Shown: one piece after another, positions 6,289 to 12,097 of the stretch
Layout of the letters: the number at the start of each line of letters is the position of its first letter
Numbering within the stretch: the stretch's first letter is position 1
NCBI GenBank assembly: GCA_016342355.1
Contig: JAEINP010000053.1
Span: 8,245-32,244, forward strand
Direction: 5' to 3'
Source of the DNA: Desulfatibacillum sp.
GTDB lineage: Bacteria > Desulfobacterota > Desulfobacteria > Desulfobacterales > Desulfatibacillaceae
DNA length: 24,000 nt
Position numbers and translations under genes: made by a program
The notes under the pieces: model-generated
Told to the model about the DNA's origin: nothing
Database searches by the model: none
Seen by the model: only the letters and a program-made list of their open reading frames with translations

Positions 6289-8958
6289 ATGAAAACCATA
6301 TATCTTGTTGACGGAAGCGCCTTCATCCATCGGGCTTTCCACGTGGTCCGGGACCTTTCCAACTCCCGGGGGCTGCCAACCAACGCCATTTTTGGGTTCA
6401 CCAAAATGATGCTCAAATTGGTGGCTGACAAAAAACCCGAATATGCCGCCATGGTATTTGACGCCAAAGGCCCCACCTTTCGCCATGACATGTTCCAGGA
6501 CTATAAAGCCAACCGTTCTGCCATGGACGAAGCCCTGGTCGTTCAAATTCCTTATATCAAGGACGTCACCCGGGCCTTTAACATGCCTATGCTGGAAATG
6601 CAGGGCTTTGAGGCCGACGACCTTATAGGCGCCCTGGCCCGGCAGGCGGAAGAAGCAGGATTTATGGTGGTCATGGTCACTAGCGACAAGGACTTCAACC
6701 AACTGGTCACCCACAAATCCGTGGTGTGGGACCCCATGAAGGACGAAACCCGCACCGTGGAAAGCATTAAGGAGACCACGGGTCTGGAGCCGCAAAGCCT
6801 TATCGAAGTCATGGCCCTTTCCGGAGACACTTCGGACAATATCCCCGGCGTCGCGGGCATCGGGCCGAAAACGGCCATCGCCCTCATCCAGGAATTCGGA
6901 AGCCTGGAAGGGGTTTACGAAAACATAGACGCCATAACCAAGAAAAAACAAAAGGAAAACCTCCTGAAATTCAAAGAGGAGGCCTATTTAAGCCGCAAGC
7001 TGGTGACAATCGACACCCATTCCCCCGTGGATTTTAACCCCGAATTCTTCCTCCTGTCAGAACCGGATTCCCCAAAACTAGCCAAACTCTTTTCCGAACT
7101 GGAATTCAGGGATCTGGTTAAGGCCTATCCGGTAAAAACCGACCTCAGCAAAAAAGAATACATCGCCATCACCAAGGCTGAGGATCTCAAAACACTGGCC
7201 GCCAACCTGGAAAAGGCGGGCATTTTTGCGGTGGATACGGAAACCACGGGCATTGATCCCATGCGGGCAGCCCTGGTGGGCATGTCCTTTTCCTATGAGC
7301 CGGACAAGGCTTATTACGTGCCCTGCGCCCATGATTATTTCGGCGCCCCGGATCACCTGTCCGTCAAGGAGGCCGTGGACATCCTGGGTCCGGTCCTGGC
7401 TAACCCGAAAATCGCCAAGGTAGGCCAGAACATCAAATACGACTGGATTATCCTGGCGCGGCATGGGGTGGATCTCCAGGGGGTTTTCTTTGACACCATG
7501 GTGGCCTCGTACCTCCTCAATCCGTCCCACAGGAGCCACGGCCTGGACCAGATCGCCATGGACCTCCTGAACCACCGCATGATCTCCTACGAGGAAGTAT
7601 GCGGCAAAGGCGCCAAGGCCATCACCTTTAACCAGGTGCCCCTGGAACAAGCAGTGCCCTACGCCTGCGAGGACGCCGACGTCACTTTCCAGATTTTTGG
7701 TATTCTCAAACCCAAACTGGAGGAAAACGGCCTTCTGGAACTTTTTGAAACCATGGAAATGCCCCTGGTCAGCGTCCTGGTAAAAATGGAGATGGAAGGC
7801 ATTACCGTGGACCCGGACCAACTCCAGGCCCTGTCCACGGAATTCCAGATAGAACTGGAAAAATCGGAAAAGGAAATCTACCTGATGGCGGGCGAGGAGT
7901 TCAATATTGCATCGCCCCAGCAACTGGGACAGATCCTTTTTGAAAAACTGGGTCTGCCCACCCAAAAGAAAACCAAAAAGAAAACCGGGTATTCCACGGA
8001 CGTCAACGTCCTAACTACTCTGGCGTCCAAGCACGAGTTGCCCGCCCTCATTCTTCGTCACAGGACCGTGGCCAAGCTGAAAAGCACCTACGTGGACGCT
8101 CTGGCCTCCCTGATTCACCCGGAAACCGGGCGGGTCCACACCTCGTTCAACCAGAACGTGACCGCCACGGGCAGGCTGAGCTCCAGCAATCCCAATTTGC
8201 AGAATATCCCCATACGCACCCCCGAGGGAAAACGCATCCGGGAGGCTTTTGTGCCCAGGCCGGGGTGGGAAATGCTTTGCGCGGACTATTCCCAAATCGA
8301 GCTACGCATCCTGGCCCATTTATCCCAGGACAAATTTCTCATTGAATTGTTTCAGCAGGGAGAGGACATTCATACGCGCACAGCCTCGGAAGTGTTTGAA
8401 CTGTTCCCCGAGTTTGTCACCGATGAAATGCGGCGGCAGGCCAAGGCCATCAATTTCGGGATTATCTACGGCATGGGGGCTTTTCGCCTTTCCAACGAAA
8501 TCGGTGTCAGCCGCAAGACCGCCCAACGGTACATCGACAACTATTTCATCTCCTACAAGGGCGTGAAGGAATTCATCGACAGAACCATCGCCCAGGCCCA
8601 CGAAACCGGTATGACCAAAACCCTGGCGGGCCGCACAAGGCCCCTGCCGGACATCAATGCCAAAAACAGGGTCTTGCAGGAGGCTGCCGAACGCATCGCC
8701 GTAAACACCCCCATCCAGGGAACCGCTGCAGATCTTATCAAGATCGCCATGATCCGGGTTCAAAACGCCCTGGAGGAAAAGGGCATGCAGACAAAAATGC
8801 TGCTGACTGTCCACGATGAATTGGTTTTCGAATCCCCGCCCGAAGAGATTTTTCAGGCTCAGATTTTGGCGGAACAACTCATGGAAGGGGTGTGGGATAT
8901 GGATGTTGAGCTGAAGGTCAATATCGAGTCGGGAAAAAGCTGGGCCGAAGCCCATTAA
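6289..8958 (+). CDS. polA: DNA polymerase I (5'-3' exonuclease, 3'-5' exonuclease and polymerase domains)
   Basis: The 889-aa product has the 5'-nuclease region (LSGDTSDNIPGVAGIGPKTA), the Exo I motif FAVDTETTG, and polymerase motifs A (LLCADYSQIELRILAH), B (RRQAKAINFGIIYGM) and C (LTVHDELVFE). Confidence 0.98.
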   Translation: MKTIYLVDGSAFIHRAFHVVRDLSNSRGLPTNAIFGFTKMMLKLVADKKPEYAAMVFDAKGPTFRHDMFQDYKANRSAMDEALVVQIPYIKDVTRAFNMPMLEMQGFEADDLIGALARQAEEAGFMVVMVTSDKDFNQLVTHKSVVWDPMKDETRTVESIKETTGLEPQSLIEVMALSGDTSDNIPGVAGIGPKTAIALIQEFGSLEGVYENIDAITKKKQKENLLKFKEEAYLSRKLVTIDTHSPVDFNPEFFLLSEPDSPKLAKLFSELEFRDLVKAYPVKTDLSKKEYIAITKAEDLKTLAANLEKAGIFAVDTETTGIDPMRAALVGMSFSYEPDKAYYVPCAHDYFGAPDHLSVKEAVDILGPVLANPKIAKVGQNIKYDWIILARHGVDLQGVFFDTMVASYLLNPSHRSHGLDQIAMDLLNHRMISYEEVCGKGAKAITFNQVPLEQAVPYACEDADVTFQIFGILKPKLEENGLLELFETMEMPLVSVLVKMEMEGITVDPDQLQALSTEFQIELEKSEKEIYLMAGEEFNIASPQQLGQILFEKLGLPTQKKTKKKTGYSTDVNVLTTLASKHELPALILRHRTVAKLKSTYVDALASLIHPETGRVHTSFNQNVTATGRLSSSNPNLQNIPIRTPEGKRIREAFVPRPGWEMLCADYSQIELRILAHLSQDKFLIELFQQGEDIHTRTASEVFELFPEFVTDEMRRQAKAINFGIIYGMGAFRLSNEIGVSRKTAQRYIDNYFISYKGVKEFIDRTIAQAHETGMTKTLAGRTRPLPDINAKNRVLQEAAERIAVNTPIQGTAADLIKIAMIRVQNALEEKGMQTKMLLTVHDELVFESPPEEIFQAQILAEQLMEGVWDMDVELKVNIESGKSWAEAH

Positions 8959-9094
8959 AAGCAAAACAGCGGAAAGCTGAAAAAGGGTGTTCCATCCGAA
9001 TAGGAGGTCTTCCGAGCAGTACGTTTTTTCGTTCGAAAGTCTGCGTAGGGGCGCCGCTTGCTGCGCCCTGTGGTTTGGTCCCCCAATCCTCGGG

Positions 9095-9126
9095 GCAGGG
9101 CAAGCCCTGCGGCTACATTGCTGTGG
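9095..9126 (+). repeat. REP-like hairpin repeat, copy 1 (forward)
   Basis: GCAGGGCAAGCCCTGCGGCTACATTGCTGTGG is 32/32 identical to 9921-9952. It contains the palindrome GCAGGGC/GCCCTGC. Confidence 0.7.
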
Positions 9127-9184
9127 TGAAATTCGCGGTGTTTCGGGCGGCTATGCCTGTTGGAATTCATAGGGGGTAAAGCAC

Positions 9185-9695
9185 ATGGCCGACAATCGGT
9201 TAACAGGCCCTTACCGTTCCCTCCGTTTAAAGAGATCCGACTATTCCCGCGCGGGAGCCTATTTCATAACCATTTGCGCCAAGGATCGGAGATGTATCTT
9301 CGGGCATATATCGAAGGAGACAATGGTTTTGGACGATTCCGGGCGGTTGGTGCATAATGCCTGGTATGAATTCCCGGAGCGGTTTCCCCGCCTGCAACTG
9401 GATGCGTTCACAATCATGCCGAAGCATGTTCACGGCATCCTGATTTTTTCTGTCAAAATAGATGGCCCGGTAAAAGGCTTAAAAATGACGTGTTTGCATA
9501 TCGCAACCTGCTGATTATATTAGGTGCGATTTTTCAAAAAAAATGACTTTTTGCATAATCATCAAAATAGTGAAATCAATAGATAGTAATGTCGATTCGT
9601 TTCAAGGCGCGAAAGGCGAGGGGTGTTTCCAGGGCCTGTCCCTTCATCTGCCCAAAATCCTTCCCATCGCAATGTAGACGCAGGGCTTGCCCTGC
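9185..9695 (+). pseudogene. Truncated, disrupted RAYT (IS200/IS605-like HUH-Y1 transposase) copy: HUH half only
   Basis: The first 88 codons differ at only 7 positions from the full-length copy at 10011 and include HVHGILIF. The frame then runs into a ~110-bp AT-rich insert and a stop at 9512-9514. The linker remnant at 9583-9695 is homologous to 10303-10413 but is 1 nt shorter, so it is frameshifted. No catalytic-Tyr half follows. Confidence 0.75.
9664..9695 (-). repeat. REP-like hairpin repeat, copy 2 (inverted)
   Basis: CCATCGCAATGTAGACGCAGGGCTTGCCCTGC. Its reverse complement matches copy 1 at about 29 of 32 positions, and it is identical to 10382-10413. Confidence 0.7.
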
Positions 9696-9819
9696 AAAAA
9701 TTGAATCCGGATTTGCCTCTCATTGGCATGGGGTTGAATTCGGCGCGAATCTTCGCCGGAGCTCAGCATGGAAATTTTTTTGGGCTATTAGGAGTCAATT
9801 TTGATAGGCATAAGTGTAT

Positions 9820-9848
9820 TTGATTTAGTGGTGTTAAAATGGTAATAT
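9820..9848 (+). promoter_or_regulatory. Candidate sigma70-type promoter reading into the full-length RAYT gene
   Basis: TTGATT (9820-9825), exactly 17 nt of spacer, then TAATAT (9843-9848), in a locally AT-rich stretch. A transcript from here would carry the forward REP hairpin in its 5' UTR. Pattern match only. Confidence 0.4.
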
Positions 9849-9920
9849 GAATTATATATGGGATCTTCCGTGACAAGAACGAGTTATCTGCTCATGTGGC
9901 ATCCGCGCCTTTCGAACAAG

Positions 9921-9952
9921 GCAGGGCAAGCCCTGCGGCTACATTGCTGTGG
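9921..9952 (+). repeat. REP-like hairpin repeat, copy 3 (forward)
   Basis: Identical to 9095-9126. It lies 59 nt upstream of the RAYT ATG at 10011. Confidence 0.7.
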
Positions 9953-10010
9953 TGACATTTGCGGTATTTTGAATGGCTATGTCGATTGGAATTACTACGG
10001 AGTAAAGCAC

Positions 10011-10802
10011 ATGGCCGACAATCGGCAAACAGGCCCTTTCCGATCCCTCCGTTTGAAGAGATACGACTATTCCAGGGCAGGAGCCTATTTCATAACCATT
10101 TGCGCTAAGGATCGGAGATGTATCTTCGGGCGCATATCGAAGGAGACAATGGTTTTGAACGATTCCGGGCGGTTGGTGCATAATGCCTGGTATGAATTGC
10201 CGGAGCGGTTTCCCCGCTTGCAACTGGATGCGTTCACAATCATGCCCAACCATGTCCACGGCATTTTGATTTTTTTCGGTGCAATAAACAAATCAGCAGA
10301 CAAGAATGCCGATCGGATTCAAGGCCCAAACGGCGAGGGAGTTTCCAGGGCCTGCATCCCTTCATCCTCCCGAAAACCTTCCCATCGCAATGTAGACGCA
10401 GGGCTTGCCCTGCCTCAGGGAAAGGCTCGTCTTTCCCTGGATAAATCCTCGGCGGAAAGACCTGATTCAGGCAAGGATAGATTGACAATGTCCCATGAAG
10501 CGCAACCCGGCTTTACCTTGGGAGACGTGGTTCGAACCTTCAAATCACTTTCCACAAGGGATATCAACCGCCAATTAAGCCGATCCGGCCCGATCTGGCA
10601 ACGCAATTATTACGAACACGTGATCCGAAACGCCCAATCCCTGAACCTCGCCAGGGAATACATTTTTAACAATTCGGCCAAATGGGCATATGATCGGGAA
10701 AGCCAGGGCATCCATCAAAATGGTTTGGGCTTTTTTAAAACCAAACTTCATTGCCCTTGCCCGGCTTTTTGCAATTCCGCGGCTTTTTGGAAATCCTCCT
10801 GA
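10011..10802 (+). CDS. REP-associated tyrosine transposase (RAYT; IS200/IS605-like HUH-Y1 family), full length, 263 aa
   Basis: The N-terminal RSLRLKRYDYSRAGAYFITICAKDR, the HUH motif MPNHVHGILIF and the catalytic-Tyr helix IWQRNYYEHVIRN, followed by AREYIFNNSAKWAYDRE, are the family signature. I chose ATG 10011 (GGAG SD 8 nt upstream; the same start is conserved in the truncated copy) rather than the ORF-track start at 9858, which reads through the REP. Confidence 0.85.
   Translation: MADNRQTGPFRSLRLKRYDYSRAGAYFITICAKDRRCIFGRISKETMVLNDSGRLVHNAWYELPERFPRLQLDAFTIMPNHVHGILIFFGAINKSADKNADRIQGPNGEGVSRACIPSSSRKPSHRNVDAGLALPQGKARLSLDKSSAERPDSGKDRLTMSHEAQPGFTLGDVVRTFKSLSTRDINRQLSRSGPIWQRNYYEHVIRNAQSLNLAREYIFNNSAKWAYDRESQGIHQNGLGFFKTKLHCPCPAFCNSAAFWKSS
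10382..10413 (-). repeat. REP-like hairpin repeat, copy 4 (inverted), inside the RAYT coding sequence
   Basis: Identical to 9664-9695. It is translated in frame as PSHRNVDAGLALP in the linker between the HUH and Tyr motifs. Confidence 0.7.
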
Positions 10803-11515
10803 GCCTTGGCGGGTTCGTTCATCTGCTGGTAGGTCAGGCCCCTAAAATAAAAAGCCTCGGCGAATTCGGGATATAACTGGATAATCCGGGAAAAATCCTC
10901 CACCGCCCCCTCGTAATCCTTGGTGCCGAACCGGATCACCCCCCGCTTCATGAGGCTTTTGTAAATGCCTTCATGGCCCAGTTCTATGGCTTTGTCCAGA
11001 TCCGGGATGGCCATGTCAAAACGTTTGAGGGCGCTCCATGCCAGGCCCCGATTGGAATAGGCCAGGCCGTTATTTGCGTCCAGGTCGATGGCCTGGGTGT
11101 AATCCTGGATGGCCTTGTCCATCTCATTCATATCGGCGTACACGTTTCCCCGGTTGATAAAGGTCGGGGCCGAGGCAGTGTCCATTTCAATGGCCTGGCT
11201 GAAATCCTCAATGGCTTCGTTGTAGCGTTTCAGGGTCCAATACACCGTACCCCGGTTGTTGAGAGCCGGGACCGCGTATTGGGGGGCATCCTTGTGCAGG
11301 TCTATGTATCGGGTGTACTGGTCGATGGCGGCCAGATATCGGCCTTTGCCTGCTGCGTCAATGGCCCGTTCAAAATAGGTTGTTCCCGGAACCGGCTCCT
11401 GGGGGGTCGGGGCCGAGGCGCAGGACGCGGCCACCATGGCGCATAGGAAGATTGCAGCCGCACGGGTTGCAAACCATGAAACAAACCGTCTGATTTGTTC
11501 GGATTTTTCCAGCAT
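10748..11515 (-). CDS. TPR-repeat protein with an N-terminal signal peptide (probable lipoprotein)
   Basis: The 255-aa product has the signal-like N-terminus RRFVSWFATRAAAIFLCAMVAASCASAP (relaxed lipobox VAASC). At least five TPR units follow (e.g. AYSNRGLAWSALKRFDMAIPDLDKAIEL, AEAFYFRGLTYQQMNEPAKAQEDFQKAAEL). I chose ATG 11515 with AGGAGG upstream. The 448-aa ORF-track extension would overlap cutA and reads as junk. Confidence 0.85.
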   Translation of the reverse strand: MLEKSEQIRRFVSWFATRAAAIFLCAMVAASCASAPTPQEPVPGTTYFERAIDAAGKGRYLAAIDQYTRYIDLHKDAPQYAVPALNNRGTVYWTLKRYNEAIEDFSQAIEMDTASAPTFINRGNVYADMNEMDKAIQDYTQAIDLDANNGLAYSNRGLAWSALKRFDMAIPDLDKAIELGHEGIYKSLMKRGVIRFGTKDYEGAVEDFSRIIQLYPEFAEAFYFRGLTYQQMNEPAKAQEDFQKAAELQKAGQGQ

Positions 11516-11761
11516 GATGATCAAGGCCTCCTGAAATCCCAGTGGATGGATCGGATTTTCCCTATCCAATATCAAAGACATGCCGCGTCTGCAAGAAAAC
11601 CTGAAATAATCATGAATTTTCGGCCTATTGGCGGTCCAAATTGCTTGACACAATGGCTCTTTGTGGTAAAGCCTGCCAGGATGAAATGGTTTACCCTGCG
11701 GTAAATAAAGGCTATCTTCAGTACGGATGGCTTTTTTTCCGGGAACAGGCTGCGGCCTGCC

Positions 11762-12097
11762 ATGGAAAAACAAGGGAATGGCGTGGACGCAATCCTTGTA
11801 TATATGACGGCTCCAAATATGGACGAGGCCCGGGCCATCGCCTCGGCCCTGGTGGAAGAACGGCTGGCCGCGTGCGCCAACGTCCTGCCCCATATGGAGT
11901 CGGTTTATCAATGGAAAGGCAAGATGGAACGCGACTCCGAGGTGGTGGTCATCGCCAAGACCAAGGCGTCTCTGGCTGATAGGCTCACGGCCCGGGTTTT
12001 GGAATTGCATAGCTACGAGGTTCCCTGTGTCGTGACCATGCCTGTCACGGGAGGCAATCCGGCGTTTTTGGCCTGGATTGACGGGGAAACCCAATAG
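11762..12097 (+). CDS. cutA: Divalent-cation tolerance protein CutA
   Basis: The 111-aa product has LVYMTAPNMDEARAIASALVEERLAACANVLPHMESVYQWKGKMERDSEVVVIAKT ... LHSYEVPCVV, the typical CutA1 fold signature. The start is uncertain because no clear SD is present. Confidence 0.88.
   Translation: MEKQGNGVDAILVYMTAPNMDEARAIASALVEERLAACANVLPHMESVYQWKGKMERDSEVVVIAKTKASLADRLTARVLELHSYEVPCVVTMPVTGGNPAFLAWIDGETQ

Follow-up and report, generated by a model that had tools for sequence, protein, structure and literature searches.

In-frame insertion of REP DNA into a RAYT gene is not a new phenomenon. A 2018 study reported it as the feature that sets apart subclass 2.4 of the TnpA_Y1 transposases, in which REPs are inserted between the HuH and Tyr motifs (Quentin, Siguier, Chandler & Fichant 2018, BMC Genomics 19:475, PMC6006769), and the arrangement analysed here is a correct rediscovery of it. 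Members of this subclass, which is equivalent to RAYT group 4 of Bertels et al. 2017 (PMC5581495), have the signature NH[IFV]H / WQ / YIxNNP (Table 1 of PMC6006769), an 8-aa insertion at the end of helix alphaB, and a variable HuH-Y spacing with a median of 88 aa. Their cognate REPs are either “long”, with three G-C pairs at the bottom of the stem, or of a “double foot” type, GT[AG]G...C[TC]AC. On the basis of a structural model, the variable region was read as a peripheral extension that is tolerated and likely has little impact on activity (PMC6006769). The 16-mers that flank group 4 genes number about 14 per replicon (PMC5581495).

Three further systems are related more distantly. E. coli TnpA_REP (YafM, structure 4ER8; Ton-Hoang et al. 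2012, PMC3333891; Messing et al. 2012, PMC3479197) shares with the protein described here the HuH/Y1 fold and the W and Tyr motifs, and in both cases GTAG-footed hairpins adjoin the gene (a REPtron), those of E. coli being substrates; it differs in that it belongs to subclass 2.2, is compact (35 aa from HuH to W), has no REP within its gene and is associated with a high-copy REP family. The TnpA proteins of IS200/IS605 elements (IS608, ISDra2) are Y1 HuH enzymes of the same class and recognise subterminal hairpins together with a guide tetranucleotide on single-stranded DNA, but in these elements the hairpins lie on either side of the gene and delimit a mobile unit found in many identical copies, whereas in our case the coding sequence itself contains one hairpin and the gene has essentially one copy. 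The Rickettsia RPEs and the intragenic GTAG/CGTC REPs (Di Nocera et al. 2013, PMC3733652) are likewise small palindromic repeats tolerated in frame within surface loops; those, however, reside in unrelated housekeeping genes at varying sites, while in the present family the repeat sits at one fixed site in the gene of its own transposase.

The gene in question is located on a 24,000-nucleotide stretch of a Desulfatibacillum genome (the window, to which positions refer unless a contig is named). A plus-strand ORF (9858–10802) holds a conserved protein of 263 aa when read from the ATG at 10011, which is preceded by GGAG about 8 nt upstream, so that the intact RAYT (TnpA_REP) gene spans 10011–10802. 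Judged from the alignment, this ATG is the start codon and not the internal TTG selected by the gene caller, because the N-terminus is conserved from about residue 11 onwards in homologues. The recorded protein (P0001, 215 aa) begins at that TTG (L49; 10011–10155 in the window) and so loses the N-terminal strand (RSLRLKRYDYS...AYFITIC) which is conserved in all homologues.

A homology search returned 5381 relatives. In the homologue alignment (A2), N80, H81 and H83 of the HuH motif NHVH (N80–H83; 10248–10259) are invariant columns, as are W196, Q197, Y217, I218 and N221 in the stretch that begins with WQRNYYEH (W196) and ends with the catalytic Tyr motif YIFNNS (Y217; 10596–10676). This stretch pairs with WQPRFWEH...YIYINP of 4ER8. 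The initial annotation had placed a linker between the HuH and Tyr motifs; its position stands, but WQRNYYEH is the conserved W motif, and the Tyr motif is YIFNNS. Pfam Y1_Tnp matches with 25 bits in the C-terminal half of the protein only, and the score against NCBIfam REP_Tyr_transpos (61 bits) stays below the 80-bit cutoff because the linker splits the domain. The sole PDB match of the homologue profile is 4ER8, which is also the best structural match of the AF2 model, followed by the ISDra2 and IS608 transposases. Alignment, PDB matches and model agree on a Y1 HuH fold with intact HuH motif and catalytic Tyr. The final ~33 codons, past ...AKWAYDRE, are a non-conserved tail (10703–10802) that overlaps the 3' end of a convergent TPR gene (10748–12094, minus strand). 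No REP follows the RAYT gene, so the REPtron may no longer have its original 3' end.

The best-supported assignment, as far as the sequence allows, is to TnpA_Y1 subclass 2.4, that is, RAYT group 4. NHVH fits NH[IFV]H, W196-Q197 fits WQ, and the positions YIxNN of the Tyr motif are shared, Y217, I218 and N221 being conserved; only the final residue deviates, as it is S here and P in at least 90% of the sequences in A2. Also in common are a frame-keeping insertion of REP DNA, variable in length and sequence, after strand beta3 and before helix alphaC, the presence of GTAG-footed REPs no more than 1 kb away from the gene, a low copy number of the repeat (18 16-mers, compared with the ~14 of group 4) and a patchy taxonomic spread. 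The locus departs from the subclass in its HuH-Y distance (136 aa against the median of 88), in about 40 additional non-REP residues on the N-terminal side of the REP, in the absence of a CTAC foot from the partner hairpin and of a downstream REP, and in the form of the foot: GTAG is separated by AC from a 7-bp stem (GCAGGGC) that has neither a GGG/CCC bottom nor a double foot, instead of the canonical GTAGGGGC, while most homologues fit the form of the subclass.

Compact RAYT/TnpA proteins had been suggested to have a far shorter spacing, as is the case for E. coli TnpA_REP (4ER8), in which 35 aa separate H59 from W94, as opposed to 115 aa between H81 and W196 here. The extra length lies in a variable linker of about 80 aa (residues 89–169; 10275–10517) between the HuH strand beta3 and helix alphaC. 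In the homologue alignment it pairs with gaps or with REP-derived peptides, and the alignment, the 4ER8 structure and the AF2 model together identify it as an insertion relative to the core Y1/HuH fold. The core (residues 21–90 and 170–225) is modelled with pLDDT above 90, the linker with pLDDT of 35–60 and no secondary structure, and the peptides encoded by the two hairpins described below sit in the stretch of lowest confidence. The linker is thus predicted to be translated as a disordered loop, and a conserved structured domain is not found at this position.

The coordinates, sequences and translations originally given for both hairpins were exact on recheck. The first (10382–10413) is a 32-nt REP unit composed of a conserved head, a GTAG foot at 10392–10395, a 2-nt spacer and the hairpin GCAGGGC-TT-GCCCTGC at 10398–10413, and is translated in frame as ...SHRNVDAGLALP (residues 124–135). 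Two nucleotides further on begins a second perfect hairpin (10416–10439), CAGGGAAAG-GCTCGT-CTTTCCCTG, with a 9-bp stem and a 6-nt loop, translated in frame as QGKARLSL (residues 136–143). It occupies the position taken by the inverted partner REP in most family members and has no CTAC foot. By an arithmetic estimate, about 0.02 perfect 9-bp stems would be expected by chance in a gene of 792 nt. Both hairpins are present in the minimum free energy and centroid folds predicted for single-stranded DNA (-15.2 kcal/mol, z = -3.2) and for RNA (-26 kcal/mol, z = -2.3). An Rfam scan of the whole window gave no family above threshold, and in a promoter and terminator scan of 8800–11200 the counts did not exceed those in shuffles, with none at the hairpins.

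The first of the two hairpins had been proposed to be an inverted copy of a REP. This holds for its core but is narrower for the full unit, of which only 4 copies exist in the 5.26-Mb genome, all within the window: two inverted ones upstream of gene copies (9095–9126 and 9921–9952) and two forward ones inside them (9664–9695 and 10382–10413). For this reason the claim of enrichment rests on the GTAG-footed 16-nt hairpin core, which has 18 exact copies in the genome and 32 copies with up to one mismatch, while reversed-pattern controls gave 0 matches. GTAG precedes about 26 of these 32 near-copies (a count taken from the genome listing), and the core ranks second in abundance among the 3462 distinct perfect hairpins of the genome. 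It occurs 11 and 14 times in two genomes of the same genus and is absent from one genome of the same family and one of the same order. By this distribution, the first hairpin is a genuine genus-specific, low-copy REP of the GTAG type. The second hairpin is unique, no further copy being found in this genome.

The hairpin might be considered a palindrome that arose by chance, or a REP inserted recently and by accident in this gene alone, as a perfect 7-bp hairpin by itself is not rare (the genome has 3564 perfect hairpins with stems of at least 7 bp). This can be regarded as refuted, with next to no residual probability: the 16-mer is identical to a genus-specific repeat of 18 copies with a GTAG foot, and its position and frame are shared with homologues of 52–57% identity and across the family.

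The intact gene is preceded by a REP (9921–9952, minus strand), with the hairpin at 9921–9936 and CTAC at 9939–9942 (GTAG on the minus strand), so that a repeated GTAG-footed palindrome flanks the gene; together with the in-gene REP it forms a 58-nt imperfect inverted repeat. No REP was found downstream of the gene. Other RAYTs are encoded elsewhere in the genome. An unrelated one on contig C46 also has a GCAGGGC REP in its flank, about 550 nt downstream. Because it shares the same core, the enzyme servicing this REP family is ambiguous, and we have rejected the assignment of the family to a single owner. The RAYT-type genes at C46:12900–14684 and C4:1–1300 have other abundant hairpins in their vicinity, namely CCTTCCCCCCTTGCGGGGGAAGG, which with 22 copies ranks first in the genome, and CCCTCCCCC...GGGGGAGGG (9 copies). 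A compact paralogue of the same subclass with a short linker (NHIH...WQRSYFEH...YISNNP; contig C103:30900–32300, loci L011/L028) has a different GTAG REP on either side (GTAG-GGGCAGAG-TYC-CTCTGCCC); as it has a REP of its own, at least two RAYT/REP pairs of this type exist in the genome.

Across the family, the distance from HuH to W varies from 43 to 162 aa, and the variable part contains recurring peptides (VGAGLALP, GAASSAPT, VGAGLKPAPT, VGALLAAP...GRASPAPT, VGARHAVPL), with NVDAGLALP of this protein pairing with VGAGLALP. The initial annotation had suspected that GAGLALP-like linker peptides occur family-wide, and this was borne out: in the DNA of 80 homologous loci from many phyla, the linker peptides are translations of GTAG-GGGC...hairpin and hairpin...GCCC-CTAC elements, which often form inverted pairs or perfect “double-foot” palindromes with a stem of 13 bp. 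The added suggestion that such a feature had not been explained does not hold, as in-frame REPs between HuH and Y had already been reported (PMC6006769). Hairpins were counted in 75 loci, 59 of which have at least one perfect hairpin with a GT[AG]G/C[TC]AC foot in the linker, which gives 5.5 such hairpins per kb of linker, compared with 0.38 per kb elsewhere in these genes. Their inner stems fall into 52 distinct sequences. GTAG is read in frame 0 (GTA GGG) 40 times and in frame 1 (xGT AGG) 16 times, but never in the frame in which TAG is a stop. From these numbers it follows that the palindrome is maintained at the nucleic acid level and the peptide is not, an open frame being the sole filter on translation. 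The linker hairpins contain only 9 mismatches in 89, too few for a count of G-T versus A-C by REP orientation to separate selection on the RNA from selection on single-stranded DNA.

Linker hairpins also match the repeats of their own genomes. With up to 2 mismatches they recur in the flanks of their own gene in 20 of 59 loci, compared with 1.8% in the flanks of other loci, and genome-wide searches gave 49 strand-matches (about 30 sites) in a Dehalococcoidia genome, 12 matches in a Desulfatiglandales genome and 3 in strain HdN1, with 0 in the controls.

A different interpretation would be selection on the peptide itself (of the VGAGLALP or GAASSAPT type), which might serve, for example, as an interaction motif or a flexible spacer and would make the palindromes in the DNA incidental. 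The recurrence of these peptides in many homologues, always at the same linker position of the fold, could be understood in this way. However, one and the same DNA element is read in two frames to give unrelated peptides (VGAG... and xRGG...), the 52 different stems are all perfectly paired, the same sequences are also found outside genes, in flanks and genome-wide, and AF2 predicts no structure there, with pLDDT below 50. The two reading frames and the diversity of stems largely refute a function at the peptide level, which we consider very unlikely.

Comparison with close relatives is instructive for the DNA itself. Two homologues from Desulfatibacillum have 52–57% amino acid identity and ~68–72% nucleotide identity in the coding region. 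Their REP hairpin is identical at 15–16 of 16 nt (14–16 over the homologues of the genus), with position and frame kept, and the second hairpin is retained in variant form, as GGAAAGGC-TT-GCCTTTCC or, with a single mismatch, as CAGGAAAAGGCTTGCCTTTCCCTG. Compared with ~68–72% for the coding sequence, the in-gene hairpins are thus better conserved than the DNA of the catalytic core.

Upstream of the intact gene lies a degraded duplicate (9094–9695, plus strand) with the structure “inverted REP – 5' half of the gene – forward REP”, its REPs being at 9095–9126 and 9664–9695. By tblastn it is 89% identical over residues 1–92. Alignment of the two copies (A1) shows homology from 9094/9920 to 9695/10413 only, that is, to the outer hairpin edges at both ends, and the flanks of the copies are unrelated; as the homology ends at the outer REP edges, the in-gene REP marked a rearrangement boundary. 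The ORF of the degraded copy is broken by a 109-nt AT-rich insert (9462–9570) which does not occur in the intact copy and is bracketed by a 9-nt direct repeat, TCAAAATAG (9453–9461 and 9562–9570), resembling a small element with a target-site duplication. The region 9045–9126 is a BIME-like cluster of three hairpins, in the order GTAGGGGCGCCGCTTGCTGCGCCC, GGTTTGGTCCCCCAATCC and the GCAGGGC REP in inverted orientation; REP A is joined to hairpin B six times in the genome (contigs C19, C78, C90 and C134 and the window).

A truncated copy in a genome of the same genus (G001:C8; locus L019, G001:C8:70908–74246, ~1500–2000) consists of a frameshifted 5' half of this RAYT, with a degenerate inverted REP upstream, and its homology stops inside the second hairpin. 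Rearrangement breakpoints coincide with the in-gene hairpins. The process that made them may have been RAYT action, REP-mediated recombination or deletion, all of which are possible. These breakpoints are the sole hint that the in-gene REP may be an active DNA site.

On this hint, one might go further and regard the in-gene REP as a working end that, together with the flanking inverted REP, defines a REPIN-like unit holding half of the transposase gene, which the RAYT or REP-directed recombination could duplicate, delete or exchange. We regard this as doubtful. If it were true, subclass 2.4 genes would be self-targeting and modular, their HuH and Tyr halves being shuffled or switched off at the hairpin, and this process would have produced both the duplicate at 9094–9695 and the truncated copy from the same genus that ends in the second hairpin.

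Of the possible explanations, we favour (with a probability of roughly 0.6) that this is a subclass 2.4 RAYT which carries in frame a REP from the adjacent REP population, kept palindromic at the DNA level, with the peptide as a passenger. By analogy with E. coli TnpA_REP, the enzyme would bind and cut single-stranded GTAG-hairpin DNA, and the REPs beside and inside the gene would form one repeat population. Homogenisation of REPs, whether through the copying process or through gene conversion, or else selection acting on the hairpin would keep these near-perfect, while selection on the enzyme would purge versions that shift the frame or carry TAG in frame; the encoded peptide would simply be carried along. 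The in-gene REP would remain a live DNA site and in the present case would have served as one boundary of the duplicated, REP-bounded half-gene segment. Several points do not sit easily with this explanation: the foot is atypical, with GTAG 2 nt away from a 7-bp stem rather than a GTAGGGGC stem, the Tyr motif is YIFNNS and not YIxNNP, and the RAYT on contig C46 shares the REP core, which leaves the cognate enzyme ambiguous. Hairpins are also present almost universally at one site in many phyla, and a selected function would explain this no less well than passive tolerance.

This last point leads to the main rival, in which selection would maintain the in-gene REP as a cis-regulatory or self-targeting site that caps or switches the output of the transposase. 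The RAYT might bind or cut the hairpin of its own gene when the coding strand is single-stranded in replication or transcription, or the two mRNA hairpins might slow translation or direct RNA decay. Such a role would account for the near-constant presence of the feature at one position in a family spanning many phyla, for perfect hairpins that persist while the peptide drifts, for the predicted stability of both hairpins in RNA and single-stranded DNA, and for truncated gene copies in two genomes that end at these hairpins. It is at odds with the rare hairpin-free members (P0057, P0074, P0094 and P0108, with a spacing of 46–49 aa), which keep all catalytic motifs, and with the in-gene repeats themselves, which among close relatives vary widely in copy number and length (43–162 aa from HuH to W), unlike what would be expected of a tuned element. 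We consider a selected site of this kind to be unlikely on balance and prefer the REP carried as a passenger at the peptide level.

Thousands of annotated transposases contain low-complexity peptides of the “VGAGLALP...GAASSAPT” type, and these are REP hairpins in translation and not protein motifs. The biological question that they raise is why a transposase family keeps its own substrate inside its coding sequence. The locus described here, with a half-gene duplicate bounded exactly by REPs, represents a small natural experiment that bears on whether RAYTs act on their own genes.
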